Assembly: GCF_013122565.1 (NCBI RefSeq)
Contig: NZ_CP053258.1
Length of the DNA: 64,000 nucleotides
Origin: Escherichia coli
GTDB lineage: Bacteria; Pseudomonadota; Gammaproteobacteria; Enterobacterales; Enterobacteriaceae
Reading direction: 5' to 3' (one strand)
Position 1 is the stretch's first letter. Each line of letters begins with the position of its first letter. Below, in pieces: positions 27,604 to 64,000 of this stretch. The notes below the pieces were generated by a model, which saw nothing but the letters and a program-made list of their open reading frames with translations, ran no database searches and was not told where the DNA came from. A program made the translations under genes and the position numbers.

Positions 27604-27604
27604 G

Positions 27605-37249: not shown

Positions 37250-37252
37250 ATG

Positions 37253-39677: not shown

Positions 39678-39683
39678 AGAAAG

Positions 39684-41665: not shown

Positions 41666-41686
41666 CCCTCTTGCATTGTGGAATTC

Positions 41687-41723
41687 ATTTGCTTGCCGGA
41701 AGCAAAATAACCGGCAAGCAAAT
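41687..41723. terminator. bidirectional terminator between ribA and acnA
   Basis: ATTTGCTTGCCGG ... CCGGCAAGCAAAT inverted repeat. Confidence 0.7.
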
Positions 41724-41728
41724 ACTTG

Positions 41729-44404
41729 TTACTTCAACATATTACGAATGACATAATGCAAAATGCCGTCGTTCTGGTAGTAGGTCAACTCCGTCGCGGT
41801 GTCGATACGACAACGGCAGAGTACGACTTCCTGGCTACCATCCGCGCGCGTAAGCGTCACCGGAACCGTCGCGCCGGGTTGTAGATTTTGCAGATCGCCA
41901 ATATCAATCTTCTCTTCCCCGGTTAGCCCTAACGTTTTACGCGTTACGCCTTGCGGAAATTCCAGCGGCAGGATGCCCATGCCAATTAAATTCGAACGGT
42001 GAATTCGTTCAAACGACTCGGCAATCACCACACGAATTCCAAGCAGACGAGGACCTTTTGCCGCCCAGTCACGGCTGGAGCCTGATCCATACTCTTTCCC
42101 GGCAATCACCGCCAGCGGCGTTTGCTCCTGCTTATAGCGCATCGCAGCATCATAAATAGAGACTACGTCGCTGTCAGGTAAATGCCGCGTCATCCCCCCT
42201 TCAACGCCAGGCACCATTTCATTACGGATGCGAATATTGGCGAAGGTGCCGCGCATCATCACTTCATGGTTACCACGCCGCGAACCGTAGGAGTTAAAGT
42301 CTTTTCGCTCAACACCCCGACCTTGTAGATATCGACCCGCTGGGCTGTCGGGCTTAATACTGCCCGCCGGAGAGATATGGTCAGTGGTGACTGAATCCCC
42401 CAGCATTGCGAGGATCCGCGCACCGTGAATATCTTCCACAGGTGCTGGTGTTGCCTGCATTTCATCAAAGAAAGGCGATAAGCGAATATAGGTTGAATCC
42501 TCCTGCCAACCGTAGGTATCGGATCGTGTGACGTTAATTTCCTTCCACTCTGCTGTGCCTTCAAAAACTTCTGCGTACTCTTTACGGAACATTTCTGTGG
42601 AGACTTGTTCTACCGCACGGGCAATTTCTTGTGCCGATGGCCAGATATCTTTCAGATAAACCGGGTCGCCTTTACGATCATGACCAATAGGCTCAGCAGC
42701 CAGGTTGATATTCATATTTCCCGCCAGCGCATAGGCAACCACCAGCGGCGGCGAGGCCAGCCAGTTGGTTTTAACCAGCGGATGGATACGGCCTTCAAAG
42801 TTACGGTTGCCGGACAGCACTGCACCGACGGTTAAATCGCCTTTTTTGATTGCCGTTTCGATAGGATCGGGCAGCGGCCCAGAGTTACCAATACAGGTGG
42901 TACAACCGTATCCCACAAGGTTAAACCCCAGTTCGTCGAGATACGGTGTCAATTTCGCTTTTGCCAGATAGTCAGAAACAACTTTCGAGCCTGGTGCCAG
43001 CGACGCTTTGACCCACGGTTGCCGCTTGAGGCCAAGAGTTACGGCTTTTTTCGCCAGCAAGCCTGCAGCCATCAGCACACTTGGGTTAGAGGTGTTGGTG
43101 CACGAGGTTATCGCAGCAATGACCACAGCGCCATCCGGTAACTGATACTGATGTCCGTTCATAACATAATCGACCGGCTGGCGATCTTTATGCGTGGCAT
43201 TCACTTCCAGTTCGTTACTGGCGGCAAATGCTTTTGGTACATCGGGCAGTGCAACGCGATCCTGTGGGCGTTTTGGCCCTGCCAGGCTCGCTTCAACGTC
43301 ATTCATATCCAGTTCTAACGTACTGGTAAAAATCGGTTCATCGCCCGGGTTACGCCACATGCCCTGCGCTTTGGCATATTTTTCGACCAACTCGACCTGA
43401 TCTTCGCTGCGCCCGCTTAAACGCATGTAATCGAGGGTTACAGCATCGATTGGGAAGAAGCCACAGGTGGCACCATATTCTGGCGACATATTGGCAATGG
43501 TGGCGCGATCCGCCAACGGTAGTGAATCCAGCCCATCACCATAAAATTCGACGAATTTCCCCACCACGCCATGTTTGCGCAGCATTTGGGTAACGGTGAG
43601 AACCAGGTCTGTGGCGGTAATACCTTCACGTAATTTTCCGGTAAGTTTAAAGCCCACTACGTCCGGGATAAGCATGGAAACCGGCTGGCCTAACATTGCG
43701 GCTTCTGCTTCGATCCCCCCCACGCCCCACCCCAGCACGCCAAGGCCGTTGATCATGGTGGTGTGCGAGTCAGTACCAACGAGTGTATCCGGATAAGCAA
43801 TCCATTCACCGTCCTGCAATTCGCTCCACACTGCTTTGCCGAGATATTCGAGGTTAACCTGATGGCAAATGCCTGTGCCTGGCGGCACGACGCTAAACCG
43901 ACTGAACGCCTGCTTTCCCCATTTCAGGAACACATAACGTTCGTGGTTGCGCTCCATTTCCAGGCGTACGTTTTCTTCAAATGCCTCATCATCACCAAAA
44001 CGATCGACGGTCACCGAGTGGTCAATGACCAGGTCGACCGGTGAGAGCGGATTAACCTTTGCAGTATCGCCACCGAGGCGTTTAACCGCTTCGCGCATTG
44101 CCGCCAGATCAACAACGGCAGGTACGCCGGTAAAGTCCTGCATCAGCACCCTTGCCGGGCGGTAGGCAATTTCACGGTCAGCATGGGCATTTTTCAGCCA
44201 TCCCGCCAGCGCGTGGATATCCTCTTCGGTAACCGAGTTACCATCCTGCCAGCGCAGCAGGTTTTCGAGCAAAACTTTGAGTGACTTGGGCAGACGGGTG
44301 ATATCGCCCAGTGATTTGGCAGCAAGCGGCAGGCTGTAGTAGTGGTAAGTTTTATCTTTGGCCTGCAACGTGTCCTTACTGGCTTCTCGTAGGGTTGACG
44401 ACAT
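41729..44404 (-). CDS. acnA: aconitate hydratase A
   Basis: 891-aa [28 protein letters not shown]. Confidence 0.97.
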
Positions 44405-44776
44405 AGCTCCTCCTTAATGACAGGGTTGCGAAGCCCTGATTCTCTTCAGGGTGAGTATTAAAGATAACACAAACATCGCGTAACGATTTGATAACAACCC
44501 AAATTGATAAAAGAGGAGAAACCTTGTGGCAAAGCAAATGAAAACCCCGCCGCAGCGGGGTCAAGGATCAGTGAGTAATGATCCAGAGGAGTTCGGCCCA
44601 GAAGAGCATCGACAGAGAAAATGCACCCATCCAGGACCAATATTTCATATTTGTGTTGATCATAGGCTACACCTTTAACGGTTATTACTTTGTGTTGAGA
44701 TAACTCAACCTGTTATTGCTGTGGTGTATTAAAAGCCCTTTAATTCATTAAAAATGGGTAATAAGAATGATGATAA

Positions 44777-44944
44777 TTATTGTTTCGGCTGTTCATCTTC
44801 AGCAAACAGTTCTATAAAGGCTTGCTGCTGCGATGTTAGTTGCCAGTCGTCTGGAATAATGACGGAACATTCCCGTTTCGTTTCTGGTTCATTATCACTA
44901 TGCTGACATAATGGTGACGACTCCAGTTGCTCCTGACCGACCAT
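44777..44944 (-). CDS. yciX: small protein
   Basis: 55-aa ORF MVGQEQLESSPLCQHSDNEPETKRE; start abuts ymiA stop. Confidence 0.7.
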   Translation of the reverse strand: MVGQEQLESSPLCQHSDNEPETKRECSVIIPDDWQLTSQQQAFIELFAEDEQPKQ

Positions 44945-44946
44945 AG

Positions 44947-45075
44947 TTATCCCCACACTTTCCAAATCAGCAGTGCGACAACCACCCAGAAAAGTGCAGA
45001 ACCAAGAAAAACCGCCAGCCAGGCTTTACGTTTTAATTCAGGATCGCGGCGGGGTTCCTGATTTCCAGAAGGCAT
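44947..45075 (-). CDS. ymiA: small single-TM membrane protein
   Basis: My translation: MPSGNQEPRRDPELKRKAWLAVFLGSALFWVVVALLIWKVWG (42 aa); below the track size cut-off; coordinates hand-counted. Confidence 0.6.
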   Translation of the reverse strand: MPSGNQEPRRDPELKRKAWLAVFLGSALFWVVVALLIWKVWG

Positions 45076-45403
45076 TGCTAACCTCATATAATCGCCATCA
45101 CTTATCAGCAAGACGTTGAACGATTGGTGTAATTAATCATACGATGAGACAAATCCTAAAGAAACTTTAGTCAAAAATCCAGCGAATTTACGAATCGTAT
45201 CCAGTGAATAATTCAATCTTTTGACCTGAAATAGATATTTGAAAACTGGAGTTTGCGAGGCGGGTAATTAGACACTACTTTACAGGTAATTTACCCTATA
45301 AATATGAGGGATAAAATATTGTGCACGATATACAAATAAGTAACAAAGAAAATATATTTCGGCACCTTCGCTACATAAAAGGTGCCGAAAATAACGCAAG
45401 AAA

Positions 45404-46402
<999 letters not shown>

Positions 46403-46530
46403 TCAGAACATCGTTTTTTCGTCACACCTGGCGGGTGACTAATACGATTTAATAATAAAAAAGGTGCTAACTATAACCACTATATCATTTATAGCCTTAG
46501 TGTATAGGTGTGAAGAAAAAATAATATGCA

Positions 46531-46558
46531 ATAAAAAAGGGCCGCTTTCGCGACCCTT
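46531..46558 (-). terminator. rho-independent terminator of topA
   Basis: Minus strand: AGGGTCGC-GAAA-GCGGCCCT followed by TTTTTT. Confidence 0.75.
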
Positions 46559-46587
46559 TGTTTATAAAAACCTGACAAAATTAAAGG

Positions 46588-49185
46588 TTATTTTTTCCCT
46601 TCAACCCATTTGCCATCAACATAAAATGCTGACCAGCCAGTCGCCTTTCCGTCTTTTTCCGAAGAGACATATTGCTGTTTGGTTTTACGGCTAAAGCGAA
46701 CCATGGTCTTATTACCTTCCGGATCCTGCTGTGGCGCATCGGCCAGATAACGCAGTTTTTCCGGCAGACGGTCGCGGAAGCGATAAAGCTCTTCCACCAG
46801 TGGCGCACGTGTTTCACGCGATTTCGGGAAAGTGTTGGCAGCCAGGAACACACCGGCAGCACCGTCACGCAGCACGAAATAAGCATCTGATTTTTCGCAC
46901 GGCAGCTCCGGTAATGGCACCGGATCTTCTTTCGGTGGTGCCACTTCGCCGTTACGTAAAATCTTACGTGTGTTTTTACACTCTTCGTTGGTGCAGGCCA
47001 TGTATTTACCGAAACGCCCCATTTTCAGGTGCATTTCAGAGCCACATTTTTCACACTCAACGATCGGGCCGTCATAACCTTTAATGCGGAATTCGCCCTC
47101 TTCGATCTCGTAACCGTCGCAGGTTGGGTTATTACCACAGACATGCAACTTACGTTTCGGATCGATGAGATAGCTGTCCATCGCCGTGCCACATTTCGGG
47201 CAACGACGTTTTGCGCGCAGCGCGTTGGTTTCAGCGTCTTCGCCTTCCAGCACGTTCAGCACTTCGTTTTCCGGCACCAGGTTAATGGTGGTTTTGCAAC
47301 GCTCTTTCGGCGGCAGCGCATAACCAGAACAGCCAAGGAATACCCCAGTGCTCGCTGTGCGAATCCCCATTTTGCGACCACAAGTCGGGCAGTCAATGCT
47401 GGTCAGAACCATCTGGTTCGGGCGCATACCACCCTCTTCCGGATCTTTTTCAGCTTTATCTAACTGCTGGGTGAAATCCGAGAAGAAGTGATCCAGTACA
47501 GCTTTCCACTCTGCTTCGTGATTTGCCACCTGGTCAAGGCTGTTTTCCATCTGCGCGGTGAAGTCGTAGTTCATTAACTCGCGGAAATTTTCTTCAAGAC
47601 GATCGGTGACGATTTCGCCCATTTTTTCCGCATAGAAACGACGGTTTTCTACACGCACATAGCCACGATCCTGAATGGTCGAAATGATCGACGCATAGGT
47701 AGACGGACGACCGATACCGCGTTTTTCAAGCTCTTTAACCAGCGATGCTTCACTGAAACGGGCTGGCGGTTTGGTAAAGTGCTGGGCTGGTGTCAGTTCA
47801 ACGAGCGTCAGAGCATCGCCTTTATCGACTGCCGGTAAGATACGATCTTCATCGCCTTTACGCAGTGCAGGCATCACTTTTGTCCAGCCATCAAAGCGCA
47901 AAATACGACCGCGTGCTTTCAGGCGGAAATCGCCCGCACCAACGGTCAGCGTCGTGGAGTCATATTTCGCCGGGGTCATCTGGCAGGCAACGAACTGACG
48001 CCAGATTAACTGGTACAGTTTCTGCGCATCTGCTTCCATATCCTTCAACGATTCCGCCATCACATTGACGTCAGAAGGACGAATCGCTTCGTGCGCTTCC
48101 TGTGAGTTTTCTTTGCTGGCGTACTGATTCGGACTTTCCGGCAGATATTTCTTACCAAAATTATCGCTGATATAACCGCGAACCATATTTACCGCGTCCT
48201 GACTCAGGTTAGTAGAGTCGGTACGCATGTAAGTGATATAGCCTGCTTCATACAAACGCTGCGCCATCATCATGGTTTTTTTCACGCCAAATCCAAGACG
48301 GGTGCTGGCAGCTTGTTGCAGCGTAGAGGTAATAAAAGGAGCGCCAGGTTTACTGGTTGTCGGTTTGTCTTCACGTTCCAGCACGCTGTAGCGCGCTTTT
48401 TCCAGCAGACTTACCGCAGCCTGAGTTTGTTCTTTGTTGACCGGACGGAACGGTTTGTCGTTCTGATGAGTCACCTGTAACGCCAACGCTTCACCAGATG
48501 GCGTGGTCGTGCTGGCATCGACTTCCCAGAACTCTTCCGGCACGAACGCTTTAATTTCACGCTCACGCTCGACCACCAGGCGAACCGCCACCGACTGCAC
48601 ACGACCGGCAGACAGACCACGAGCGATCTTTTTCCATAGCAGCGGCGAAACCATATACCCCACCACGCGGTCCATAAAGCGACGCGCCTGCTGGGCATTA
48701 ACACGATCAATATTCAGCTCACCCGGTTTGTTAAATGCCTGGCGGATCGCGTTTTTAGTAATTTCGTTAAACACTACTCGGCTATAGCGCGCATCATCAC
48801 CACCAATCACTTCCCGCAGGTGCCATGCAATGGCTTCCCCTTCGCGGTCAAGGTCGGTTGCGAGATAGATGTGGTCGGCTTTTTCAGCCAGTTGTTTCAG
48901 TTCAGAGACGACCTTCTCTTTACCAGGCAACACTTCATAGTGCGCCTCCCAATTGTGCCACGGGTCAACCCCCATACGGTTGACGAGAGCGCCACGTTCA
49001 TCCTTTTTAGGCTTTTTAGCCGTCTTGGTGGAGGTAGAGTCGGCACTCTTTTTGGCAGCTGAGCCACTGGTCGGCAAATCGCGGATGTGACCGACGCTGG
49101 ATTTCACCACGTAGTCACTACCCAGATACTTGTTGATCGTTTTGGCTTTTGCCGGGGACTCAACGATGACAAGAGCTTTACCCAT
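46588..49185 (-). CDS. topA: DNA topoisomerase I
   Basis: Track ORF trimmed to [22 protein letters not shown] (865 aa); C-terminal zinc ribbons. Confidence 0.97.
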
Positions 49186-49564
49186 ATTCACCTTACCTAA
49201 TTTGATTCTTCCAGGAATGCGTCGCACGTTGATAAACCTTCCACTGGCAACGAGTTACCGATATGGACTCGCTCTCTGCGGATATCAACCCCTTGTCGTG
49301 ACTCTGTTCACGAAAATTCAGGTGACTGAGTTAACAGGTCTTGGCCTACAGGCGCTATAGCACGACGGAATTTTGGTCGAATGTCAAGCAAATCTATTGC
49401 CAGATTGACGAAAGCGTCACACTGTACCTGATAAAATCCGATACGCAACTTTATTAGCATGCAAAATCCAAAGTTACCAGTAAGGCGCTCTTGCCAGCAG
49501 CGTGGTATATTTGTCTGCAAGCCATGCCTGGCGTAGACTAATGTCCTTGTTTAAGGAGTAAATA

Positions 49565-49816
49565 ATGAACAAAGAGACACAACCCATCGACCGCGAAACG
49601 CTGTTGAAAGAGGCCAACAAAATCATTCGTGAGCATGAGGATACGCTCGCAGGGATTGAAGCCACCGGCGTCACGCAGCGTAATGGCGTGCTGGTATTTA
49701 CCGGCGACTACTTTTTAGATGAACAAGGATTGCCAACAGCCAAAAGCACCGCGGTGTTTAATATGTTCAAACACCTGGCCCATGTGCTTTCAGAAAAATA
49801 TCATCTGGTTGATTAA
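49565..49816 (+). CDS. yciN: small protein of unknown function
   Basis: 83-aa [33 protein letters not shown]. Confidence 0.9.
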
Positions 49817-49820
49817 AGCA

Positions 49821-49851
49821 AAACGCGAGGTCTTAGCCTCGCGTTTGTCTT
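49821..49851. terminator. bidirectional terminator between yciN and sohB
   Basis: ACGCGAGG-tcttag-CCTCGCGT followed by TTGTCTTTT. Confidence 0.8.
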
Positions 49852-50901
49852 TTACATCAATGGCTTTTGACCCCGCTGCCACCAGCGTAGCAACAATCGA
49901 TCGGCGCTCTCTGCCGCGCTGCCGGTGAATCGGTCAATGAGTCGTTTACGCTGCATATAGCGTACATTGACCACTTCACGGCCTTCCATCAGGCTAAGAA
50001 TAACTTCATCACTGGTGTTGATTTCATCAACCAGGCCTTTCTCTACCGCCTGTTGTCCGTACCAGTGTTCACCCGTTGCCACCTGTTCAATATCCAGAGA
50101 AGGACGCATACGCTTCACAAAATCCTTAAATAACTGATGCGTTTCGTTCAACTCTTCGCGGAATTTCTCCCGCCCTTCTTCGGTATTTTCACCTAGCAAC
50201 GTCAGCGTGCGCTTATACTGCCCGGCAGTGTGCAGTTCAATATCAATATCTTTGCTTTTCAGGAAGCGGTTAAAGTTGGGCATTTGCGCCACCACGCCAA
50301 TGGAACCCACAATAGCAAACGGTGCGGAAACAATTTTGTCCGCCACACAGGCCATCATGTAACCGCCGCTGGCAGCAACTTTGTCTACCGTAACAGTTAA
50401 AGGAATGTTTTTATCACGCAGACGCTGCAGCTGCGAAGCCGCCAACCCGTAACCATGCACCATGCCACCAGGGCTTTCCAGACGGAGCACAACCTGATCC
50501 TGCGGTTTGAATGCTGCGAGTACCGCCGTTATCTCTTCACGTAGCGAGTTCACTTCATGGGCGTCCATGCTGCCTTTAAAATCCAGCACCCAGACGCGGG
50601 GTTTACTGTCAGTTGCCACCTCGCCCAGTTTGGCTTTCGCTTTTGCTGCTTTCGCTTCTTGCTTGTGCTTTTTCTTCTGCGCTTTGTGCCACTGTTTTTG
50701 CTGATGTGAGTCCATCAGCGCCGCGGCCAGTTCTTCTTTCATCTCCTTATACTGTTCGCTGAGATTGTTGACCCGTAACTCGCCACGCTGGCGTTTATTA
50801 CGTTGAGCAACATTGACAATAATGGCGGCAATCGCCGCAATCGCTAGCACAACGGTAACGATTTTCGCCAAAAACAAACCATATTCAGACAACAATTCCA
50901 C
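49852..50901 (-). CDS. sohB: S49-family inner-membrane peptidase
   Basis: 349-aa ORF; N-terminal TM; ClpP/S49 fold. Confidence 0.9.
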   Translation of the reverse strand: MELLSEYGLFLAKIVTVVLAIAAIAAIIVNVAQRNKRQRGELRVNNLSEQYKEMKEELAAALMDSHQQKQWHKAQKKKHKQEAKAAKAKAKLGEVATDSKPRVWVLDFKGSMDAHEVNSLREEITAVLAAFKPQDQVVLRLESPGGMVHGYGLAASQLQRLRDKNIPLTVTVDKVAASGGYMMACVADKIVSAPFAIVGSIGVVAQMPNFNRFLKSKDIDIELHTAGQYKRTLTLLGENTEEGREKFREELNETHQLFKDFVKRMRPSLDIEQVATGEHWYGQQAVEKGLVDEINTSDEVILSLMEGREVVNVRYMQRKRLIDRFTGSAAESADRLLLRWWQRGQKPLM

Positions 50902-51120
50902 GAGTCCCCACCTTGGTTAAACAACGCTTTGGCTCACAGTTTACAACAGGCATGTTAAGCCGTCTCGCAGAGATGTTATTGCAGCGAAAGTATGACAAAG
51001 TATCCATTTTGCGGTGTTATCGCCCCAGGCTGATTGAAATGCCCTTCTGTTTCAGGCATAAAGCCCCAAAGTCATAAAGTACACTGGCAGCGCGACAGAC
51101 AACGTCGTTGAGGAGTAGCC

Positions 51121-51879
51121 ATGCATTACCAGCCAAAACAAGATTTACTCAATGATCGCATTATCCTGGTGACGGGAGCCAGTGATGGTATTGGTCGTGA
51201 AGCCGCGATGACGTATGCACGCTATGGTGCGACAGTGATTCTGTTGGGCCGTAATGAAGAAAAATTACGTCAGGTAGCCAGCCACATAAACGAAGAAACT
51301 GGGCGTCAGCCACAGTGGTTTATTCTCGATTTGCTGACCTGCAGGTCCGAAGATTGCCAACAACTGGCACAGCGCATTGCCGTTAATTATCCGCGTCTGG
51401 ATGGTGTTTTGCATAATGCCGGATTGCTCGGCGATGTTTGTCCAATGAGCGAACAAAATCCACAGGTCTGGCAGGACGTCATACAGGTCAACGTTAATGC
51501 CACCTTTATGCTCACCCAGGCACTGCTTCCTTTATTACTCAAATCGGACGCCGGTTCACTGGTCTTTACTTCATCAAGCGTTGGACGTCAGGGACGAGCC
51601 AACTGGGGCGCATATGCAGCGTCGAAATTTGCCACCGAAGGGATGATGCAGGTACTGGCCGATGAATATCAGCAGCGCCTGCGCGTCAACTGCATTAACC
51701 CAGGCGGTACGCGCACCGCAATGCGGGCCAGCGCCTTCCCGACCGAAGATCCACACAAACTTAAAACCCCCGCTGATATCATGCCGCTATACCTCTGGCT
51801 GATGGGCGATGACAGCCGCCGTAAAACCGGCATGACCTTTGACGCCCAACCGGGCCGTAAACCAGGAATTTCCCAATGA
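51121..51879 (+). CDS. yciK: short-chain dehydrogenase/reductase
   Basis: 252-aa ORF with TGASDGIG and YxxxK. Confidence 0.9.
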   Translation: MHYQPKQDLLNDRIILVTGASDGIGREAAMTYARYGATVILLGRNEEKLRQVASHINEETGRQPQWFILDLLTCRSEDCQQLAQRIAVNYPRLDGVLHNAGLLGDVCPMSEQNPQVWQDVIQVNVNATFMLTQALLPLLLKSDAGSLVFTSSSVGRQGRANWGAYAASKFATEGMMQVLADEYQQRLRVNCINPGGTRTAMRASAFPTEDPHKLKTPADIMPLYLWLMGDDSRRKTGMTFDAQPGRKPGISQ

Positions 51880-52466
51880 GTGATGAACGCTACCAACAGC
51901 GTCAGCAGCGAGTGAAAGAAAAAGTAGATGCTCGTGTGGCCCAGGCCCAGGATGAACGCGGTATTATCATCGTCTTTACCGGCAATGGAAAAGGCAAAAC
52001 CACCGCGGCATTTGGTACGGCAACTCGTGCAGTAGGCCATGGCAAAAAAGTGGGTATCGTGCAGTTTATTAAAGGCACCTGGCCTAATGGCGAGCGCAAT
52101 CTACTGGAGCCACATGGCGTTGAGTTTCAGGTGATGGCAACGGGCTTTACCTGGGATACACAAAACCGCGAGTCTGATACCGCCGCCTGCCGCGAAGTCT
52201 GGCAACATGCAAAGCGGATGCTTGCTGATTCCTCACTGGATATGGTTTTGCTTGATGAGCTGACTTATATGGTGGCGTATGACTATTTGCCACTGGAAGA
52301 AGTGGTGCAGGCGTTAAATGAACGTCCACATCAACAGACGGTGATTATCACGGGTCGAGGCTGTCATCGGGATATTCTTGAACTGGCGGATACGGTGAGT
52401 GAATTGCGCCCCATCAAACATGCGTTTGATGCCGGTGTAAAAGCGCAGATAGGGATCGATTATTAA
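51876..52466 (+). CDS. btuR: cob(I)alamin adenosyltransferase
   Basis: 196-aa ORF; P-loop GNGKGKTTAAFG; overlaps yciK stop. Confidence 0.9.
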   Translation: MSDERYQQRQQRVKEKVDARVAQAQDERGIIIVFTGNGKGKTTAAFGTATRAVGHGKKVGIVQFIKGTWPNGERNLLEPHGVEFQVMATGFTWDTQNRESDTAACREVWQHAKRMLADSSLDMVLLDELTYMVAYDYLPLEEVVQALNERPHQQTVIITGRGCHRDILELADTVSELRPIKHAFDAGVKAQIGIDY

Positions 52467-52475
52467 TCTGTAAAA

Positions 52476-52505
52476 ATGCCGGATATGACGTCCGGCATAT
52501 TTTGA
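52476..52505. terminator. bidirectional terminator between btuR and rluB
   Basis: ATGCCGGA-tatgacg-TCCGGCAT followed by ATTTTG. Confidence 0.8.
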
Positions 52506-53378
52506 TTAACCGTTATTACGTCCGCCAGAACGACGACCGCCGCTCACCTGACTGTGACGTTTCACCGCACGACGAATCTGATTCGCCTTCATGCGACGAC
52601 GGTCTTTTTCTACAGCGACTTTAGAGCTGGTTTCTGGCGGTAGCTCCACCAGTTCGCGCAGATAGTTAGTCTGGGCGAGGTCCAGCTCCGTCCAGCCACC
52701 GCGTGGCAGACCTTTCGGCAGTGGGATATCACCGTAACGAACACGGATCAGGCGGCTGACCTGCACACCAACCGCTTCCCACAGACGACGAACTTCACGG
52801 TTACGGCCTTCGGTCAGAGTAACGTTGTACCACTGGTTGATCCCTTCGCCGCCGCTGAACTTGATGGTTTTAAAAGCTGCCGGCCCATCTTCCAGCTGCA
52901 CGCCACGACTCAAATCACGCAGTTTCGCGTCGTCAACCTGACCAAATACGCGCACGGCATATTCACGTTCAACTTCACGGCTTGGATGCATTAAACGGTT
53001 TGCCAGTTCACCGTCGGTAGTGAACAGCAACAGACCACAGGTGTTAACGTCCAGACGACCTACAGCAATCCAACGTGCGCCACGCAATTTTGGCAGACGG
53101 TCAAACACCGTTGGACGTCCTTCCGGATCGTTACGGGTACACAACTCACCTTCCGGTTTGTAATAGGCCAGAACGCGACAAATTTGTTCAGCGGACTCAC
53201 GTACCGAAATCAGATGACCATCGATACGAATTTTCAGCCCAGGAGTAACTTCAACGCGATCGCCGAGTTTAGCAATTTTGCCATCAACACTCACTCGACC
53301 GGCTTCAATAATAGATTCGATTTCACGGCGAGAACCGTGGCCGGCACGCGCCAGCACTTTCTGTAGCTTTTCGCTCAT
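52506..53378 (-). CDS. rluB: 23S rRNA pseudouridine-2605 synthase
   Basis: Track ORF trimmed to [21 protein letters not shown] (S4 domain; RLDxxTxGLL motif); Arg/Gly-rich tail. Confidence 0.9.
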
Positions 53379-53478
53379 AGAGCTTCCTTTTGGTGTCGCC
53401 TTCACAGGCGTCGAACAGGAGAATCAATGGCGCCGTATAGCGCCATTTTAAGGCCGCGTAGTATACAGAGTTACGCAC

Positions 53479-54099
53479 TTATAAGAAAGGCTTCACATCA
53501 CCTACGCCTTCACGCAATACGACTGGCGTATCATCGGTAAGATCAATAACCGTTGTTGGTTTCTGCCCGAGATAGCCGCCGTGAATGATCAAATCTACCT
53601 GTTTTTCCAGACGGTCTTTAATTTCTTCCGGATCGGATTCGGTAAATTCGCTGCCTGGCAGCATTAGCGAAGTGGAAAGCATCGGTTCGCCCAGTGCTTC
53701 AAGCAAAGCCTGCGCAATCGGGTTAGAAGGCACACGCATACCGATGGTTTTGCGTTTTTCCTGCAACAGACGGCGTGGCACCTCCTTCGTCCCCTTCAGG
53801 ATGAAGGTATAGTTGCCCGGCGTGTTGTTTTTCATTAAACGAAACGCAACGTTATCGACAAATGAATAGGTCGAGAGTTCAGAAAGATCGCGACACATCA
53901 GGGTAAAGTTGTGACCGTCCGGCAGCTGGCGAATACGACAAATACGCTCCATGGCGTTTTTATCTTCAATTTTACAGCCGAGCGCATAGCCGGAATCAGT
54001 TGGATAAACAATCACCCCGCCTTTACGCACGATCTCCACCGCCTGGTTGATCAGACGTTGCTGCGGGTTATCAGGATGAATATAAAAAAACTGGCTCAT
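53479..54099 (-). CDS. yciO: YrdC/Sua5-family protein (TsaC paralogue)
   Basis: Track ORF trimmed to MSQFFYIHPDNPQQRL (206 aa). Confidence 0.9.
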   Translation of the reverse strand: MSQFFYIHPDNPQQRLINQAVEIVRKGGVIVYPTDSGYALGCKIEDKNAMERICRIRQLPDGHNFTLMCRDLSELSTYSFVDNVAFRLMKNNTPGNYTFILKGTKEVPRRLLQEKRKTIGMRVPSNPIAQALLEALGEPMLSTSLMLPGSEFTESDPEEIKDRLEKQVDLIIHGGYLGQKPTTVIDLTDDTPVVLREGVGDVKPFL

Positions 54100-54977
54100 A
54101 ATTCCCTCTCTGTGGTGTTCTGCGGCTGTTCCCATAGCTGCCAGACGCCTTCAACGCCTGCAGGCAGCCAGAGTTTACGACCCAGTTCGATCCACGGGCA
54201 TGGCTGATGAAAATCAGATCCTTGTGATGCCCATAAATGATGCTGACGCGCAAGGGTCGCCAGCTGGGTACGTTCATTGGGCGATTGCTGGCACTGCGCG
54301 ACTTCCATCGCGTCGCCGTGGTGTTCGGCAAAATGCGCAACCAATCTTTTCAGCCATTTAGCACTAAGATTGTACCGCCCAGGATGAGCTAGCACCGCCT
54401 TACCGCCAGAATGATGAATGACATCAATAGCTTGTTCTATTGTACACCACTGTGGCGGAACGTATCCGGTTTTCCCGCGCGCCAGATACTTTTTAAAGAC
54501 ATCCGCCATTGAACTGGCTTTGCCGCACTCCACAAGGAAACGCGCAAAATGACCGCGCGTCACCGCGCCGCCCTGAGCCAGTCGTTGCGCGCCTTCCAGC
54601 GCCCCAGATATTTGCGCTTTTTCAAGTCTTTCGGCAATGAGCTGCGCCCGCTGATTGCGCCGTTCTGTTTGCTGCGCGAGGAACTCACACATTAGCGGAT
54701 GAGTAATATCAATATTCAGCCCGACAATATGAATTTCATGATTTTCCCAGACCGTGGAAATTTCCACGCCGGGAATAAGATTCAGCGCCAGTCCCGAACG
54801 TGAAATTTCCTCTCTTGCTGGCGCGATTGCAGCTGTGGTGTCATGGTCGGTGATCGCCAGGGTGCCGACGCGCATCTCGACTGCACGGTGCACCAATGCT
54901 TCTGGCGTCAGGCAGCCATCGGAAGCTGTGGTATGGCTGTGCAGGTCGTAAATCACTGCGTAATTCGTGTCGCTCAA
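54096..54977 (-). CDS. trpH: PHP-domain 5'-3' exoribonuclease (RNase AM)
   Basis: 293-aa ORF; PHP motif YDLHSHTTASDG. Confidence 0.9.
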   Translation of the reverse strand: MSDTNYAVIYDLHSHTTASDGCLTPEALVHRAVEMRVGTLAITDHDTTAAIAPAREEISRSGLALNLIPGVEISTVWENHEIHIVGLNIDITHPLMCEFLAQQTERRNQRAQLIAERLEKAQISGALEGAQRLAQGGAVTRGHFARFLVECGKASSMADVFKKYLARGKTGYVPPQWCTIEQAIDVIHHSGGKAVLAHPGRYNLSAKWLKRLVAHFAEHHGDAMEVAQCQQSPNERTQLATLARQHHLWASQGSDFHQPCPWIELGRKLWLPAGVEGVWQLWEQPQNTTEREL

Positions 54978-55052
54978 GGCGCACTCCCGTTCTGGATAAT
55001 GTTTTTTGCGCCGACATCATAACGGTTCTGGCAAATATTCTGAAATGAGCTG

Positions 55053-55089
55053 TTGACAATTAATCATCGAACTAGTTAACTAGTACGCA
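55053..55089 (+). promoter_or_regulatory. trp promoter with TrpR operator
   Basis: TTGACA -35, TTAACT -10, operator palindrome CGAACTAGTTAACTAGTACG overlapping -10; leader ATG about +27. Confidence 0.9.
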
Positions 55090-55114
55090 AGTTCACGTAA
55101 AAAGGGTATCGACA

Positions 55115-55159
55115 ATGAAAGCAATTTTCGTACTGAAAGGTTGGTGGCGCACTTCCTGA
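55115..55159 (+). CDS. trpL: trp operon leader peptide
   Basis: ATGAAAGCAATTTTCGTACTGAAAGGTTGGTGGCGCACTTCCTGA = [14 protein letters not shown] with tandem Trp codons. Confidence 0.95.
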
Positions 55160-55200
55160 AACGGGCAGTGTATTCACCTTGCGTAAAGCAATCAGATACC

Positions 55201-55229
55201 CAGCCCGCCTAATGAGCGGGCTTTTTTTT
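55201..55229 (+). terminator. trp attenuator (3:4 hairpin plus U-tract)
   Basis: CAGCCCGCCTAATGAGCGGGCTTTTTTTT about 20 nt upstream of trpE. Confidence 0.95.
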
Positions 55230-55250
55230 GAACAAAATTAGAGAATAACA

Positions 55251-56813
55251 ATGCAAACACAAAAACCGACTCTCGAACTGCTAACCTGCGAAGGCGCTTA
55301 TCGCGACAATCCCACCGCGCTTTTTCACCAGTTGTGTGGGGATCGTCCGGCAACGCTGCTGCTGGAATCCGCAGATATCGACAGCAAAGATGATTTAAAA
55401 AGCCTGCTGCTGGTAGACAGTGCGCTGCGCATCACAGCTTTAGGTGACACTGTCACAATCCAGGCGCTTTCCGGCAATGGTGAAGCCCTGCTGACACTAC
55501 TGGATAACGCCCTGCCTGCGGGTGTGGAAAATGAACAATCACCAAACTGCCGTGTGCTGCGCTTCCCCCCTGTCAGTCCACTGCTGGATGAAGACGCTCG
55601 CTTATGCTCCCTTTCGGTTTTTGACGCTTTCCGCTTATTGCAGAATCTGTTGAATGTACCGAAGGAAGAACGAGAAGCAATGTTCTTCGGCGGCCTGTTC
55701 TCTTATGACCTTGTGGCGGGGTTTGAAGATTTACCGCAACTGTCAGCGGAAAATAACTGCCCTGATTTCTGTTTTTATCTCGCTGAAACGCTGATGGTGA
55801 TTGACCATCAGAAAAAAAGCACCCGCATTCAGGCCAGTCTGTTTGCTCCGAATGAAGAAGAAAAACAACGTCTCACTGCTCGCCTGAACGATCTTCGCCA
55901 GCAACTGACCGAAACCGCGCCACCGCTGCCGGTGGTTTCCGTGCCGCATATGCGTTGTGAATGTAACCAGAGCGATGAAGAGTTCGGTGGCGTAGTGCGT
56001 TTGTTGCAAAAAGCGATTCGCGCCGGAGAAATTTTCCAGGTGGTGCCATCTCGCCGTTTCTCTCTGCCCTGTCCGTCACCGCTGGCGGCCTATTACGTGC
56101 TGAAAAAGAGTAATCCCAGCCCGTACATGTTTTTTATGCAGGATAATGATTTCACCCTGTTTGGCGCGTCGCCGGAAAGTTCGCTCAAGTATGATGCCAC
56201 CAGCCGCCAGATTGAGATCTACCCGATTGCCGGAACACGTCCACGCGGTCGTCGTGCCGATGGTTCACTGGACAGAGACCTCGACAGCCGCATCGAACTG
56301 GAAATGCGTACCGATCATAAAGAGCTTTCTGAACATCTGATGCTGGTGGATCTCGCCCGTAATGATCTGGCACGCATTTGCACCCCCGGCAGCCGCTACG
56401 TCGCCGATCTTACCAAAGTTGACCGTTACTCTTACGTGATGCACCTGGTCTCCCGCGTGGTCGGTGAGCTGCGCCACGATCTCGACGCCCTGCACGCTTA
56501 CCGCGCCTGTATGAATATGGGGACGTTAAGCGGTGCGCCGAAAGTACGCGCTATGCAGTTAATTGCCGAGGCGGAAGGTCGTTGCCGCGGCAGCTACGGC
56601 GGCGCGGTAGGTTATTTCACCGCGCATGGCGATCTCGACACCTGCATTGTGATCCGCTCGGCGCTGGTGGAAAACGGTATCGCCACCGTGCAAGCCGGTG
56701 CTGGCGTAGTCCTTGATTCTGTTCCGCAGTCGGAAGCCGACGAAACCCGTAATAAAGCCCGCGCTGTACTGCGCGCTATTGCCACCGCGCATCATGCACA
56801 GGAGACGTTCTGA
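55251..56813 (+). CDS. trpE: anthranilate synthase component I
   Basis: 520-aa [31 protein letters not shown]. Confidence 0.97.
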
Positions 56814-58408
56814 TGGCTGACATTCTGCTGCTCGATAATATCGACTCTTTTACTTACAACCTGGCAGATCAGTTGCGCAGCAATGGTCATAACGTGGTGA
56901 TTTACCGCAACCATATTCCGGCGCAGACCTTAATTGAACGCCTGGCGACGATGAGCAATCCGGTGCTGATGCTTTCTCCTGGCCCCGGTGTGCCAAGCGA
57001 AGCCGGTTGTATGCCGGAACTTCTCACCCGCCTGCGCGGCAAGCTGCCAATTATTGGTATTTGCCTCGGACATCAGGCGATTGTCGAAGCTTACGGGGGC
57101 TATGTCGGTCAGGCGGGCGAAATTCTACACGGTAAAGCCTCCAGCATTGAACACGACGGTCAGGCGATGTTTGCCGGATTAACAAACCCATTGCCGGTGG
57201 CGCGTTATCACTCGCTGGTTGGCAGTAATATTCCGGCCGGTTTAACCATCAACGCCCATTTTAATGGCATGGTGATGGCGGTGCGTCATGATGCGGATCG
57301 CGTTTGCGGACTCCAGTTCCACCCGGAATCCATTCTTACTACCCAGGGCGCTCGCCTGCTGGAACAAACGCTGGCCTGGGCGCAGCAGAAACTTGAGCCA
57401 ACCAACACGCTGCAACCGATTCTGGAAAAACTGTATCAGGCACAGACGCTTAGCCAACAAGAAAGCCACCAGCTGTTTTCAGCGGTGGTGCGTGGTGAAC
57501 TGAAGCCGGAACAACTGGCGGCGGCGCTGGTGAGCATGAAAATTCGCGGCGAGCACCCGAACGAGATCGCCGGGGCAGCAACCGCACTACTGGAAAATGC
57601 CGCGCCGTTCCCGCGCCCGGATTATCTGTTTGCTGATATCGTCGGGACTGGCGGTGACGGCAGCAACAGCATCAATATTTCCACCGCCAGTGCGTTTGTC
57701 GCCGCGGCCTGTGGGCTGAAAGTGGCGAAACACGGCAACCGTAGCGTCTCCAGTAAATCTGGCTCGTCGGATCTGCTGGCGGCGTTCGGTATTAATCTTG
57801 ATATGAACGCCGATAAATCGCGCCAGGCGCTGGATGAGTTAGGTGTATGTTTCCTCTTTGCACCGAAATATCACACCGGATTTCGCCATGCAATGCCGGT
57901 TCGCCAGCAACTAAAAACCCGCACCCTGTTCAATGTGCTGGGGCCATTGATTAACCCGGCGCATCCGCCGCTGGCGTTAATTGGTGTTTATAGTCCGGAA
58001 CTGGTGCTGCCGATTGCCGAAACCTTGCGCGTGCTGGGGTATCAACGCGCGGCGGTGGTGCACAGCGGCGGGATGGATGAAGTTTCATTACACGCGCCGA
58101 CAATCGTTGCCGAGCTGCATGACGGCGAAATTAAGAGCTATCAATTGACCGCTGAAGATTTTGGCCTGACACCCTACCACCAGGAGCAACTGGCAGGCGG
58201 AACACCGGAAGAAAACCGTGACATTTTAACACGTTTGTTACAAGGTAAAGGCGACGCCGCCCATGAAGCAGCCGTCGCTGCGAACGTCGCCATGTTAATG
58301 CGCCTGCATGGCCATGAAGATCTGCAAGCCAATGCGCAAACCGTTCTTGAGGTACTGCGCAGTGGTTCCGCTTACGACAGAGTCACCGCACTGGCGGCAC
58401 GAGGGTAA
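56813..58408 (+). CDS. trpD: anthranilate synthase component II / anthranilate phosphoribosyltransferase
   Basis: 531-aa ORF; TGATG coupling with trpE. Confidence 0.97.
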
Positions 58409-59770
58409 ATGATGCAAACCGTTTTAGCGAAAATCGTCGCAGACAAGGCGATTTGGGTAGAAGCCCGCAAACAGCAGCAACCGCTGGCCAGTTTTCAGAA
58501 TGAGGTTCAGCCGAGCACGCGACATTTTTATGATGCGCTACAGGGTGCGCGCACGACGTTTATTCTGGAGTGCAAGAAAGCGTCGCCGTCAAAAGGCGTG
58601 ATCCGTGATGATTTCGATCCGGCACGCATTGCTACCGTCTACAGAAATTACGCTTCGGCAATTTCGGTGCTGACTGATGAGAAATATTTTCAGGGGAGCT
58701 TTGATTTCCTCCCCATCGTCAGTCAAATCGCCCCACAGCCGATTTTATGTAAAGACTTCATTATCGACCCTTACCAGATCTATCTGGCGCGCTATTACCA
58801 GGCCGATGCCTGCTTATTAATGCTTTCAGTACTGGATGACGAACAATATCGCCAGCTTGCCGCCGTCGCCCACCGTCTGGAGATGGGTGTGCTGACCGAA
58901 GTCAGTAATGAAGAGGAACTGGAGCGCGCCATTGCATTGGGGGCAAAGGTCGTTGGCATCAACAACCGCGATCTGCGTGATTTGTCGATTGATCTCAACC
59001 GTACCCGCGAGCTTGCGCCGAAACTGGGGCACAACGTGACGGTAATCAGCGAATCCGGCATCAATACTTACGCTCAGGTGCGCGAGTTAAGCCACTTCGC
59101 TAACGGTTTTCTGATTGGTTCGGCGTTGATGGCCCATGACGATTTGCACGCCGCCGTGCGCCGGGTGTTGCTGGGTGAGAATAAAGTATGTGGCCTGACG
59201 CGTGGGCAAGATGCTAAAGCAGCTTATGACGCGGGCGCGATTTACGGTGGGTTGATTTTTGTTGCGACATCACCGCGTTGCGTCAACGTTGAACAGGCGC
59301 AGGAAGTGATGGCTGCGGCACCGTTGCATTATGTTGGCGTGTTCCGCAATCACGATATTGCCGATGTGGTGGACAAAGCTAAGGTGTTATCGCTGGCGGC
59401 AGTGCAACTGCATGGTAATGAAGAACAGCTGTATATCGATACGCTGCGTGAAGCTCTGCCAGCACACGTTGCCATCTGGAAAGCATTAAGCGTCGGTGAA
59501 ACCCTGCCCGCCCGCGAGCTTCAGCACGTTGATAAATATGTTTTAGACAACGGCCAGGGTGGAAGCGGGCAACGTTTCGACTGGTCACTGTTAAACGGTC
59601 AATCGCTTGGCAACGTTCTGCTGGCGGGGGGATTAGGCGCAGATAACTGCGTGGAAGCGGCACAAACCGGCTGCGCCGGACTTGATTTTAATTCTGCTGT
59701 AGAGTCGCAACCGGGCATCAAAGACGCACGTCTTTTGGCCTCGGTTTTCCAGACGCTGCGCGCATATTAA
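58409..59770 (+). CDS. trpC: indole-3-glycerol-phosphate synthase / phosphoribosylanthranilate isomerase
   Basis: 453-aa [24 protein letters not shown]; start could be the second ATG at 58412. Confidence 0.97.
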
Positions 59771-59781
59771 GGAAAGGAACA

Positions 59782-60975
59782 ATGACAACATTACTTAACC
59801 CCTATTTTGGTGAGTTTGGCGGCATGTACGTGCCACAAATCCTGATGCCTGCTCTGCGCCAGCTGGAAGAAGCTTTTGTCAGTGCGCAAAAAGATCCTGA
59901 ATTTCAGGCTCAGTTCAACGACCTGCTGAAAAACTATGCCGGGCGTCCAACCGCGCTGACCAAATGCCAGAACATTACGGCTGGCACGAACACCACGCTG
60001 TATCTGAAGCGCGAAGATTTGCTGCACGGCGGCGCGCATAAAACTAACCAGGTGCTGGGCCAGGCTTTACTGGCGAAGCGAATGGGTAAAACTGAAATTA
60101 TTGCCGAAACCGGAGCCGGTCAGCATGGCGTGGCGTCGGCCCTTGCCAGCGCCCTGCTCGGCCTGAAATGCCGTATTTATATGGGGGCCAAAGACGTTGA
60201 ACGCCAGTCGCCTAACGTTTTTCGTATGCGTTTAATGGGTGCGGAAGTGATCCCGGTGCATAGCGGTTCCGCGACGCTGAAAGATGCCTGTAACGAGGCG
60301 CTGCGCGACTGGTCCGGCAGTTATGAAACCGCGCACTATATGCTGGGCACCGCAGCTGGCCCACATCCTTATCCGACCATTGTCCGTGAGTTTCAGCGGA
60401 TGATTGGCGAAGAAACCAAAGCACAGATTCTGGAAAGAGAAGGTCGCCTGCCGGATGCCGTTATCGCCTGTGTTGGCGGCGGTTCGAATGCCATCGGCAT
60501 GTTTGCAGATTTCATCAACGAAACCAACGTCGGCCTGATTGGTGTGGAGCCTGGCGGTCACGGTATTGAAACTGGCGAGCACGGCGCACCGCTAAAACAT
60601 GGTCGCGTGGGCATCTATTTCGGTATGAAAGCGCCGATGATGCAAACCGAAGACGGGCAGATTGAAGAATCTTACTCCATCTCCGCCGGACTGGATTTCC
60701 CGTCCGTCGGCCCGCAACACGCGTATCTTAACAGCACTGGACGCGCTGATTATGTATCAATTACCGATGATGAAGCACTGGACGCCTTCAAAACGCTGTG
60801 CCTGCATGAAGGGATTATCCCGGCGCTGGAATCCTCCCACGCGCTGGCCCATGCGCTGAAAATGATGCGCGAAAACCCGGAAAAAGAGCAGCTACTGGTG
60901 GTTAACCTTTCCGGTCGCGGCGATAAAGACATCTTCACCGTTCACGATATTTTGAAAGCACGAGGGGAAATCTGA
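59782..60975 (+). CDS. trpB: tryptophan synthase beta chain
   Basis: 397-aa [24 protein letters not shown]. Confidence 0.97.
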
Positions 60976-61781
60976 TGGAACGCTACGAATCTCTGTTTGC
61001 CCAGTTGAAGGAGCGCAAAGAAGGCGCATTCGTTCCTTTCGTCACGCTCGGTGATCCGGGCATTGAGCAGTCGCTGAAAATTATCGATGCGCTAATTGAA
61101 GCCGGTGCTGACGCGCTTGAGTTAGGCATCCCCTTCTCCGACCCACTGGCAGATGGCCCGACGATTCAAAACGCCACACTGCGTGCCTTTGCGGCAGGTG
61201 TGACCCCGGCTCAGTGCTTTGAGATGCTGGCACTCATTCGCCAGAAACACCCTACCATTCCCATTGGCCTGCTGATGTATGCCAACCTGGTGTTTAACAA
61301 AGGCATTGATGAGTTTTATGCCGCGTGCGAGAAAGTCGGCGTCGATTCGGTGCTGGTTGCCGATGTGCCAGTAGAAGAATCCGCGCCTTTCCGTCAGGCC
61401 GCGTTGCGTCATAATGTCGCACCTATCTTCATCTGCCCGCCAAATGCCGATGACGACCTGCTGCGCCAGATAGCCTCTTATGGTCGTGGTTACACCTATT
61501 TATTGTCGCGTGCGGGCGTGACCGGCGCAGAAAACCGCGCCGCGTTACCCCTCAATCATCTGGTTGCGAAGCTGAAAGAGTACAACGCTGCACCTCCATT
61601 GCAGGGATTTGGTATTTCCGCCCCGGATCAGGTAAAAGCAGCGATTGACGCAGGAGCTGCGGGCGCGATTTCTGGTTCAGCCATTGTTAAAATCATCGAG
61701 CAACATATTAATGAGCCAGAGAAAATGCTGGCGGCACTGAAAGTTTTTGTACAACCGATGAAAGCAGCGACGCGCAGTTAA
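60975..61781 (+). CDS. trpA: tryptophan synthase alpha chain
   Basis: 268-aa [31 protein letters not shown]; TGATG coupling with trpB. Confidence 0.97.
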
Positions 61782-61786
61782 TCCCC

Positions 61787-61815
61787 CAGCCGCCAGTTCC
61801 GCTGGCGGCATTTTA
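61787..61815 (+). terminator. trp operon terminator
   Basis: CAGCCGCCAG-ttcc-GCTGGCGGC followed by ATTTT. Confidence 0.85.
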
Positions 61816-62161
61816 ACTTTCTTTAACGAAGCCGGAAAAATCCTAAATTCATTTATTATTTATTTTTTTACCGTTTCGCTTACCCCTGTCGAACGTCAAC
61901 TTACGTCATTTTTCCGCCCAACAGTAATATAATCAAACAAATTAGTCCCGCAACATAACACCAGTAAAATCAATAATTTTCTCTAAGTCACTTATTCTTC
62001 AGACAATTGTTAATATATCAAGAAGGTTCCTCATAATATATTTTCCCACTTTCTTCTCGTTACGCTTAATTTGACTAATTTTCATTAGCGACTAATTTTA
62101 ATGAGTGTCGACACACAACACTCATATTAATGAAACAATGCAACGCAACGGGAGAAATAAC

Positions 62162-62341
62162 ATGACCGAACATCGTGGTGGTTCAGGAAATTTCGCCGAA
62201 GACCGTGAGAAGGCATCCGACGCAGGCCGTAAAGGCGGTCAGCATAGCGGCGGTAATTTTAAAAATGATCCGCAACGCGCATCTGAAGCGGGTAAAAAAG
62301 GCGGTCAACAAAGCGGTGGTAATAAATCAGGCAAGTCCTGA
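62162..62341 (+). CDS. yciG: small glycine-rich stress protein with internal tandem repeat
   Basis: Track ORF trimmed to MTEHRGGSGNF (59 aa); GGAGA SD upstream; two copies of an about 20-aa unit. Confidence 0.85.
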   Translation: MTEHRGGSGNFAEDREKASDAGRKGGQHSGGNFKNDPQRASEAGKKGGQQSGGNKSGKS

Positions 62342-62426
62342 TTCACCGTTAATTATTAATATCAGCTGATAAAGATAATTGCATCTGCGGGCCGTATGGC
62401 TCGCAGTGATTTCATTGGAGAAAAAT

Positions 62427-62927
62427 ATGAATATGAAGACCATTGAAGATGTATTTATTCACCTGCTTTCAGATACCTACAGCGCAGAAAAACAATTAAC
62501 CCGTGCACTGGCAAAACTCGCTAGAGCAACATCAAACGAAAAATTAAGTCAGGCTTTTCATGCGCACCTCGAGGAAACTCATGGACAGATTGAACGAATT
62601 GATCAAGTTGTGGAATCTGAATCGAACCTGAAAATTAAGCGCATGAAATGTGTGGCAATGGAAGGTCTCATTGAAGAAGCTAATGAGGTCATCGAAAGCA
62701 CCGAGAAAAACGAAGTGCGTGATGCCGCACTGATTGCCGCTGCACAGAAAGTCGAGCACTATGAGATCGCCAGTTACGGGACCTTAGCGACGCTGGCTGA
62801 ACAATTAGGTTACCGTAAAGCAGCTAAACTTCTGAAAGAAACTCTTGAAGAAGAAAAGGCTACCGACATCAAACTGACTGATCTGGCCCTTAATAACGTA
62901 AATAAGAAAGCCGAAAATAAAGCCTGA
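62427..62927 (+). CDS. yciF: ferritin-like DUF892 stress protein
   Basis: Track ORF trimmed to MNMKTIEDVFIHLL (166 aa). Confidence 0.9.
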   Translation: MNMKTIEDVFIHLLSDTYSAEKQLTRALAKLARATSNEKLSQAFHAHLEETHGQIERIDQVVESESNLKIKRMKCVAMEGLIEEANEVIESTEKNEVRDAALIAAAQKVEHYEIASYGTLATLAEQLGYRKAAKLLKETLEEEKATDIKLTDLALNNVNKKAENKA

Positions 62928-62972
62928 AATATGAACTTTAACTTTTAGTCATTTTATAAAGAGGACATTTTC

Positions 62973-63479
62973 ATGAATCGTATTGAACATTATCATGACT
63001 GGTTACGTGACGCCCACGCAATGGAAAAGCAAGCCGAATCAATGCTTGAATCCATGGCCAGCCGTATAGATAATTATCCTGAACTACGCGCTCGTATCGA
63101 ACAACATCTTAGTGAAACCAAAAACCAGATTGTTCAACTGGAAACTATTCTTGATCGTAATGACATTTCACGTTCAGTCATTAAAGATTCCATGAGTAAA
63201 ATGGCTGCGCTTGGGCAGTCAATCGGTGGTATCTTCCCTTCTGATGAAATAGTTAAAGGCTCTATTAGCGGATATGTCTTCGAGCAATTTGAAATCGCCT
63301 GTTACACCTCACTATTAGCAGCAGCAAAAAATGCCGGTGATACAGCTTCAATTCCAACCATCGAAGCGATTTTAAATGAGGAAAAGCAAATGGCCGACTG
63401 GCTGATTCAGCATATTCCGCAAACAACTGAGAAATTTTTAATTCGCTCTGAAACTGAAGGCGTAGAAGCGAAGAAATAA
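62973..63479 (+). CDS. yciE: ferritin-like DUF892 stress protein (YciF paralogue)
   Basis: 168-aa ORF MNRIEHYHDWLRDAHAMEKQAE. Confidence 0.9.
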   Translation: MNRIEHYHDWLRDAHAMEKQAESMLESMASRIDNYPELRARIEQHLSETKNQIVQLETILDRNDISRSVIKDSMSKMAALGQSIGGIFPSDEIVKGSISGYVFEQFEIACYTSLLAAAKNAGDTASIPTIEAILNEEKQMADWLIQHIPQTTEKFLIRSETEGVEAKK

Positions 63480-63503
63480 TACCCTTTATGCCATGTCCTT
63501 ATT

Positions 63504-63531
63504 GACCCCGTATATTACGGGGTCGTTTTTG
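63504..63531. terminator. bidirectional terminator between yciE and ompW
   Basis: GACCCCG-tatatta-CGGGGTC followed by GTTTTT. Confidence 0.85.
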
Positions 63532-63538
63532 TGCGGAA

Positions 63539-64000
63539 TTAAAAACGATATCCTGCTGAGAACATAAACACCCACGGATCGAGGCGTACGCTATCATGTT
63601 GCTGTGCACCGCCCAGCTTATAATTGGCGGTGGTATCGATATCCATGTACCAGACTGACATGTTAACCAACCAGTCACGGTTAATCAGATAATCAACCCC
63701 CACCTGCCCGGCAGCTCCCCAGGAATCTTTCAGACTGAGATCGGAAAGCCCCGCCTCTTTGCCATGATCGTTAAATCCATTATCAAAGAAGGTGGTGTAG
63801 TTAATACCTGCCCCAACGTAAGGACGGAATTTGCTGCTGGCATCACCAAAATACCACTGCGCCATCAGTGTTGGCGGCAGATGATGAACGGTTGCAATAT
63901 CGCCGGTCGCCCGGGTGCCGATTTTATGGCGGAACGGCGTCGCTGCCAGTAATTCCACACCAATGTTGTCGGTCGCCATATAAGTAAACGTCAAGCCCAG
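63539..64000 (-). CDS. ompW: outer membrane protein W, C-terminal part (gene runs off window end)
   Basis: ORF ends in the beta-barrel terminal motif SAGYRF; N-terminus and signal peptide lie beyond position 64000. Confidence 0.9.
   Translation of the reverse strand: MGLTFTYMATDNIGVELLAATPFRHKIGTRATGDIATVHHLPPTLMAQWYFGDASSKFRPYVGAGINYTTFFDNGFNDHGKEAGLSDLSLKDSWGAAGQVGVDYLINRDWLVNMSVWYMDIDTTANYKLGGAQQHDSVRLDPWVFMFSAGYRF

Follow-up and report, generated by a model that had tools for sequence, protein, structure and literature searches.

An intact, native trp control region in an Escherichia coli-type chromosome carries a rare substitution at leader nucleotide 91

Within the window, i.e. the whole 64,000-nucleotide stretch of Escherichia coli DNA that was analysed, the span 55053-55229 extends exactly from a -35 hexamer to the end of a U-run and is a known textbook element, the control region of the trp operon, which lies intact and in its native place. 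We hold with high confidence that this native chromosomal trpLEDCBA control region would work as described in textbooks and that the one base by which it departs from K-12, an A to U change at leader nucleotide 91 (A91U), is real and most likely has little or no effect on regulation. The features on which the analysis bears are listed here by their positions in the window.

55053-55058, + strand: -35 hexamer of the trp promoter (TTGACA), read from the sequence; same in MG1655
55076-55081, + strand: -10 hexamer of the trp promoter (TTAACT), read from the sequence; same in MG1655
55068-55087, no strand: TrpR operator palindrome, CGAACTAGTT followed by AACTAGTACG, from an inverted-repeat reading; same in MG1655
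55089, + strand: transcription start (+1), the A of AAGTTCACG, by K-12 numbering
55115-55159, + strand: trpL leader peptide ORF, 14 codons plus TGA, with the ATG at 55115 and the TGA at 55157-55159; trpL is annotated at the homologous place of MG1655
55143-55178, + strand: region 1:2 hairpin, from folding, in agreement with the Rfam consensus helix
55162-55207, + strand: region 2:3 antiterminator, from folding of nascent RNA with a mask
55179, + strand: substitution A to T relative to K-12, leader nucleotide +91 (A91U), from ungapped comparison with MG1655
55180-55181, + strand: trpL pause site, U92 (-1, RNA 3' end) and G93 (+1, incoming base), from mapping of an oligonucleotide (PMC9291695)
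55202-55229, + strand: region 3:4 intrinsic terminator (attenuator), G+C-rich stem plus T8, from a stem search and its energy; the Rfam match ends at 55229
55251-61781, + strand: trpE, trpD, trpC(F), trpB and trpA, all five ORFs open (520, 531, 453, 397 and 268 aa)

Elements of the trp control region

The first-pass annotation, a reading of the letters without database searches, had described an undamaged TTGACA/TTAACT promoter, a TrpR operator palindrome, a 14-codon leader with tandem Trp codons and a terminator hairpin with U8. All four are present, the promoter and operator being identical to those of MG1655 and the leader peptide and terminator to those of K-12. The two hexamers are separated by 17 bp, as in K-12, and the operator is made of two 10-nt arms with a gap of 0, self-complementary at 9/10 positions (90%), with GTTAAC at its centre and an overlap with the -10 hexamer. 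A generic promoter scan did not list the trp promoter and reported only a weak match on the minus strand; because its rule calls for A as the second base of the -10 hexamer, a demand that TTAACT fails, the missing call is a limit of the scanner and no evidence against the promoter. Placing +1 at A55089, which we take from the established K-12 numbering, puts the AUG of trpL at +27-29, its Trp codons at +54-59 and its stop codon at +69-71, in agreement with the textbook positions.

The tandem Trp codons of trpL (TGG TGG at 55142-55147) lie within the 5' arm of the 1:2 helix, which upon folding pairs +55-59 with +86-90, +61-65 with +79-83 and +67-70 with +74-77; within it, +63-81 form the pause hairpin. 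The 2:3 antiterminator is folded by pairing of +74-78 with +115-119, +80 with +113 and +82-86 with +107-111. The terminator stem (AGCCCGC/GCGGGCT at 55202-55222) is a perfect 7-bp helix with six G-C pairs and runs into eight T residues at 55222-55229, the last of which is 21 nt upstream of the trpE ATG at 55251. A search with the Rfam family RF00513 (Trp_leader) matched 55136-55229 over model positions 1-100 of 100, with 93.5 bits against a threshold of 41 and E = 9.5e-21, and a control-region query of 221 bases (window 55040-55260) was identical to MG1655 at 220/221 positions; this score and this identity are a resemblance far beyond chance. The sole other RNA family match in the window, a strong one, is the enterobacterial sRNA STnc180 (RF02079) at 44534-44736 on the minus strand (199.3 bits, threshold 50).

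By what is known from K-12, TrpR with tryptophan would bind the palindrome overlapping the -10 hexamer and block initiation, while transcripts that have started would undergo ribosome-mediated attenuation. The trpR gene itself is outside the 64-kb window. During attenuation, as described for K-12, RNA polymerase would pause just after the 1:2 hairpin, at U92, and wait for a ribosome to start translation of trpL. Were this ribosome to stall at the tandem Trp codons, it would cover region 1, so that 2:3 pairs and transcription reads through into trpE; if it reached the stop codon, 3:4 would pair, leading to termination at the U8 tract.

Chromosomal setting and lineage

Upstream, the control region is preceded by its native neighbours rnm(trpH)-yciO-rluB, and downstream it is followed by the complete trpEDCBA; Pfam analysis of an identical locus in a public Logan assembly returned Chorismate_bind, GATase/Glycos_transf_3, IGPS/PRAI and PALP. 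Vectors make wide use of the trp promoter-leader, and of its 5,428 matches among complete E. coli genomes 6 are on plasmids, so that a cloned cassette, i.e. an expression vector or an engineered insert, was weighed as the origin of this segment. We consider this most improbable given the flanking genes at both ends, the collinearity of the whole window (1-64000) with E. coli chromosomes over 64 kb, the divergence of the surroundings, which is natural in look and mostly synonymous, and the absence of any vector sequence or junction from the few hundred bases around 55053-55229. In one of the genomes with matching places three copies were present; plasmid-borne and extra copies of the trp control region are probably vector-borne or duplicated.

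Around trp, the window differs from K-12 by 67 synonymous and 7 nonsynonymous codon differences and by 58 transitions and 17 transversions. The identity of the trp region is 97.7% to K-12 and 92-96% to E. albertii, E. whittamii, Escherichia sp. MOD1-EC7003 and a mislabelled 'E. coli' representative. Among 5,426 complete RefSeq E. coli genomes, the highest identity to the window was only 97.9% for 1-25000, 98.8% for 25001-45000 and 98.1% for 45000-64000. Sequence comparison thus points to a deep-branching lineage of E. coli type that has no complete genome in the 5,426-genome collection. A Shigella origin is unlikely, as the window carries no IS elements, is fully collinear and, in each of its three segments, is similarly far (~1-2%) from the E. 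coli genomes that match it best; an origin in another Escherichia species is likewise unlikely at only 92-96% identity to the representatives of these species. The first-pass annotation had called the window ordinary E. coli sequence, which holds for its collinearity and for its 97.7% identity to K-12, closer than to other Escherichia, and less well for its best complete genome, which reaches only 97.9-98.8%. The trp locus is therefore chiefly useful as a control, being native, collinear, of E. coli type and intact in its regulatory region; for other findings in the window, near-identity to K-12 is not to be assumed, given that best identity.

Several observations were made along these comparisons. 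The record NZ_JAATUR010000067.1, labelled Escherichia coli strain SCPM-O-B-8794, shares only 92.7% identity with the trp region of the window, is a separate GTDB species representative and has the terminator loop of E. whittamii (CTCATAA); it is probably a cryptic-clade Escherichia labelled E. coli. The gap between yciO and rluB (window 53412-53479) holds ~2.1 kb of extra DNA in E. whittamii and Escherichia sp. MOD1-EC7003 (L015 5638-7739 and L022 2644-4734), which is missing from the window and from K-12. The segment 1-25000, with ycjM-ycjT, sapA and puuA-puuC, was covered to at least 80% in one place by 3,932 of the 5,423 matching E. coli genomes, and therefore some of it varies or is rearranged in roughly one strain in four. 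Over the first 503 codons compared, TrpE (encoded at 55251-56813) differs from that of K-12 by A82T, S94N, E214D, A222T and R445C, the last of which falls in the conserved C-terminal chorismate-binding part.

A single substitution at position 55179

Across 54961-55432 the only mismatch to MG1655 is an A to T change at 55179. It lies inside the span 55053-55229 and outside the promoter, the operator, the leader peptide and the terminator. Alignment to the K-12 leader, by which the earlier reading was to be checked, thus found the four named elements identical and revealed one mismatch that had gone unnoticed. Made without tools, that reading had named leader mismatches as what would speak against it, and missed a single-base difference of just this kind; it is partly supported, i.e. 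it stands except for this one base and for a somewhat optimistic view of how ordinary the E. coli background is.

The allele is very rare. The 221-base query matched 5,421 of the 5,426 complete E. coli genomes, at places annotated 'Trp leader region', 'trpL' and 'trpE', with a best identity of 99.5% and never 100%. A 57-base probe centred on 55179 had no exact match in the 5,421 complete E. coli genomes, all records falling in the 95-99% band; the exact 31-mer with T had 0 matches in 100,044 GTDB species-representative genomes, and the exact string had 0 matches among JGI metagenome contigs. The fact that this single transversion matches exactly in no complete E. coli genome would fit with an error made in sequencing or assembly, or with a change private to one isolate, K-12 being the true sequence. 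This explanation, which we regard as very improbable, is contradicted by public assemblies. Exact look-up of the TrpE protein of the window returned five public contigs, two of which, Logan assemblies of runs SRR11451197 and SRR11451224, were checked for the allele, and both have T at the site. Over 7.5 kb, one of these contigs matches the window at every position, and the second departs from it at 6 further sites, so that it represents a different assembly and clone. Since T is found in two independent assemblies, it is a genuine polymorphism of a small lineage and not an error; A91U is real and lineage-specific.

Comparison of non-coding and coding positions suggests that the control region is constrained. 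The 273-bp intergenic region between rnm and trpE carries one change, that at 55179, versus a synonymous difference in 6.8% of the flanking codons, indicating strong purifying selection on the control region. We also fetched 27 leaders from species representatives by the conserved string GGTTGGTGGCGCACTTCCTGA and aligned them with K-12 and the window; column counts refer to the 28 leaders other than the window (the 27 and K-12).

+91 (pause -2): A in 7, C in 20 and T in 1 (Leclercia) of 28
+92 (pause -1): U in 26/28
+93 (pause +1): G in 27/28
+94: C in 28/28

The core of the pause is thus conserved across genera and the preceding base varies freely, which supports tolerance of A91U. All Escherichia leaders fetched (E. 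albertii, E. whittamii, MOD1-EC7003 and the record labelled E. coli) have A at +91; within this genus +91 may be under constraint, and A91U is not necessarily neutral in the strict sense.

Predicted effects of A91U and comparison with known leaders

The changed base, +91, is at the 3' edge of region 2 and belongs to a variable linker that joins the conserved 1:2 helix to the terminator and is unpaired in the Rfam alignment. Folding of the K-12 leader pairs A91 with U54, the outermost pair of an extension of 1:2 that is specific to E. coli; with U91 this closing pair is lost and a new pair, U91-A103, is formed. The predicted energy of the 1:2 hairpin accordingly changes from -16.9 kcal/mol in K-12 (A91) to -15.7 kcal/mol in the window (U91), i.e. 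by +1.2, and that of the 2:3 antiterminator from -15.6 to -16.8 kcal/mol, i.e. by -1.2, the gain in 2:3 arising because the U91-A103 pair lengthens a small hairpin within the 2:3 loop. The 3:4 terminator (-14.0 kcal/mol) and the pause hairpin (nt 63-81; -4.0 kcal/mol) have the same energies in both alleles. The combined shift of 2.4 kcal/mol from 1:2 towards 2:3 could, as modelled, slightly raise basal read-through.

We modelled the switch with both alleles on nascent RNA 1-123, in which region 4 is not yet made, using masks for the ribosome. With no mask, 1:2 formed with a probability of 0.99-1.00 and 2:3 did not form with either allele. Masking of nt 42-70, to mimic ribosome stalling at the Trp codons, gave 2:3 with a probability of 0.94 (A) and 0.98 (U), and masking of nt 57-84, to mimic a ribosome that has reached the stop codon, gave no 2:3 and left region 3 free for region 4. 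When the complete 141-nt leader was folded at equilibrium under ribosome masks, the terminator resulted in every case and the alleles were not told apart, as expected of a switch that is decided kinetically. As far as these models go, the mutually exclusive 1:2, 2:3 and 3:4 helices are predicted to form and the logic of the switch is intact.

The position of the substitution relative to the pause was derived from the template oligonucleotide of the trpL pause (3947SJ; supplementary), which spans -30 to +5 (PMC9291695). This oligonucleotide maps to leader nucleotides 63-97, and therefore the pause is at U92 (-1)/G93 (+1) and the substitution at -2. It falls in the RNA-DNA hybrid at the pause, outside the pause hairpin and the consensus G-10/Y-1/G+1 (PMC9291695); this hairpin, U92 (Y-1) and G93 (G+1) are as in K-12, and the -2 base is not. 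In the literature searched, we found no mutagenesis of the -2 base of the trpL pause. As a real, very rare and apparently tolerated change, A91U provides a modest experiment of nature at position -2 of one of the most thoroughly studied transcription pauses.

That A91U is functionally significant, altering the duration of the pause or the competition between 1:2 and 2:3 and so the basal trp read-through, we consider unlikely. It would fit with the position of the base in the hybrid of the paused complex, with the predicted changes of +1.2 (1:2) and -1.2 (2:3) kcal/mol, with the allele having no exact counterpart among 5,421 E. coli genomes, with the A kept by the other Escherichia representatives fetched and with its being the lone change in a 273-bp region under evident purifying selection. 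The shift is, however, small beside helices of -15 to -17 kcal/mol, the modelled pairing probabilities barely change, and hairpin, Y-1 and G+1 of the pause are all retained; moreover, this column holds C in Citrobacter and Enterobacter and T in Leclercia, the Rfam consensus leaves the base unpaired, and the allele is carried by two slightly different genomes with an intact operon. Equally doubtful to us is that A91U represents a natural regulatory variant of the deep-branching lineage, acting on the pause or on the balance of 1:2 and 2:3, or changes target pairing of rnTrpL. The preferred reading remains a textbook control region in which A91U most likely has little or no regulatory effect.

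A further consequence of the substitution concerns a start codon. In K-12, the AUG at +91-93 heads a 20-codon ORF (MRKAIRYPARLMSGLFFEQN) that runs through the terminator; in the window (55179-55241, + strand) this codon is UUG. To our knowledge no function has been reported for this ORF, which may be without significance.

Compared with K-12 MG1655, the hexamers, spacer, operator, leader peptide, Trp codons, regions 1-4, terminator loop and U8 of the window are the same base for base, and the control region is likewise located between rnm and trpE. The only difference is A91 in K-12 versus U91 here, by which the outer pair of region 1:2 is lost and the AUG at +91-93 becomes UUG. The leaders of Citrobacter, Enterobacter and Leclercia share with the window the ...GWWRTS* C-terminus of the peptide, the 1:2 core, the U/GC core of the pause, the small hairpin before region 3 and the 3:4 terminator with its U-run, whereas their linker from +84 to +99 differs from that of the window and has C (20 leaders) or T (Leclercia) at +91, which shows that variation is tolerated at this column outside Escherichia.

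The pauses of hisL and of other amino-acid operon leaders are likewise built from a nascent hairpin that lies ~10 nt before the RNA 3' end, a pyrimidine, with G as the incoming base, and such hairpin-stabilised, NusA-enhanced pauses are thought to synchronise transcription with translation of the leader (PMC9291695); relative to the trpL pause of K-12, that of the window has U and not A as its -2 base. The terminated trp leader, rnTrpL, is reported to be an Hfq-dependent sRNA that acts in trans on dnaA, sanA and mhpC (reviewed in PMC12612679). A transcript of ~140 nt reaching to the U-run would arise here too, differing from that of K-12 at nucleotide 91 only.
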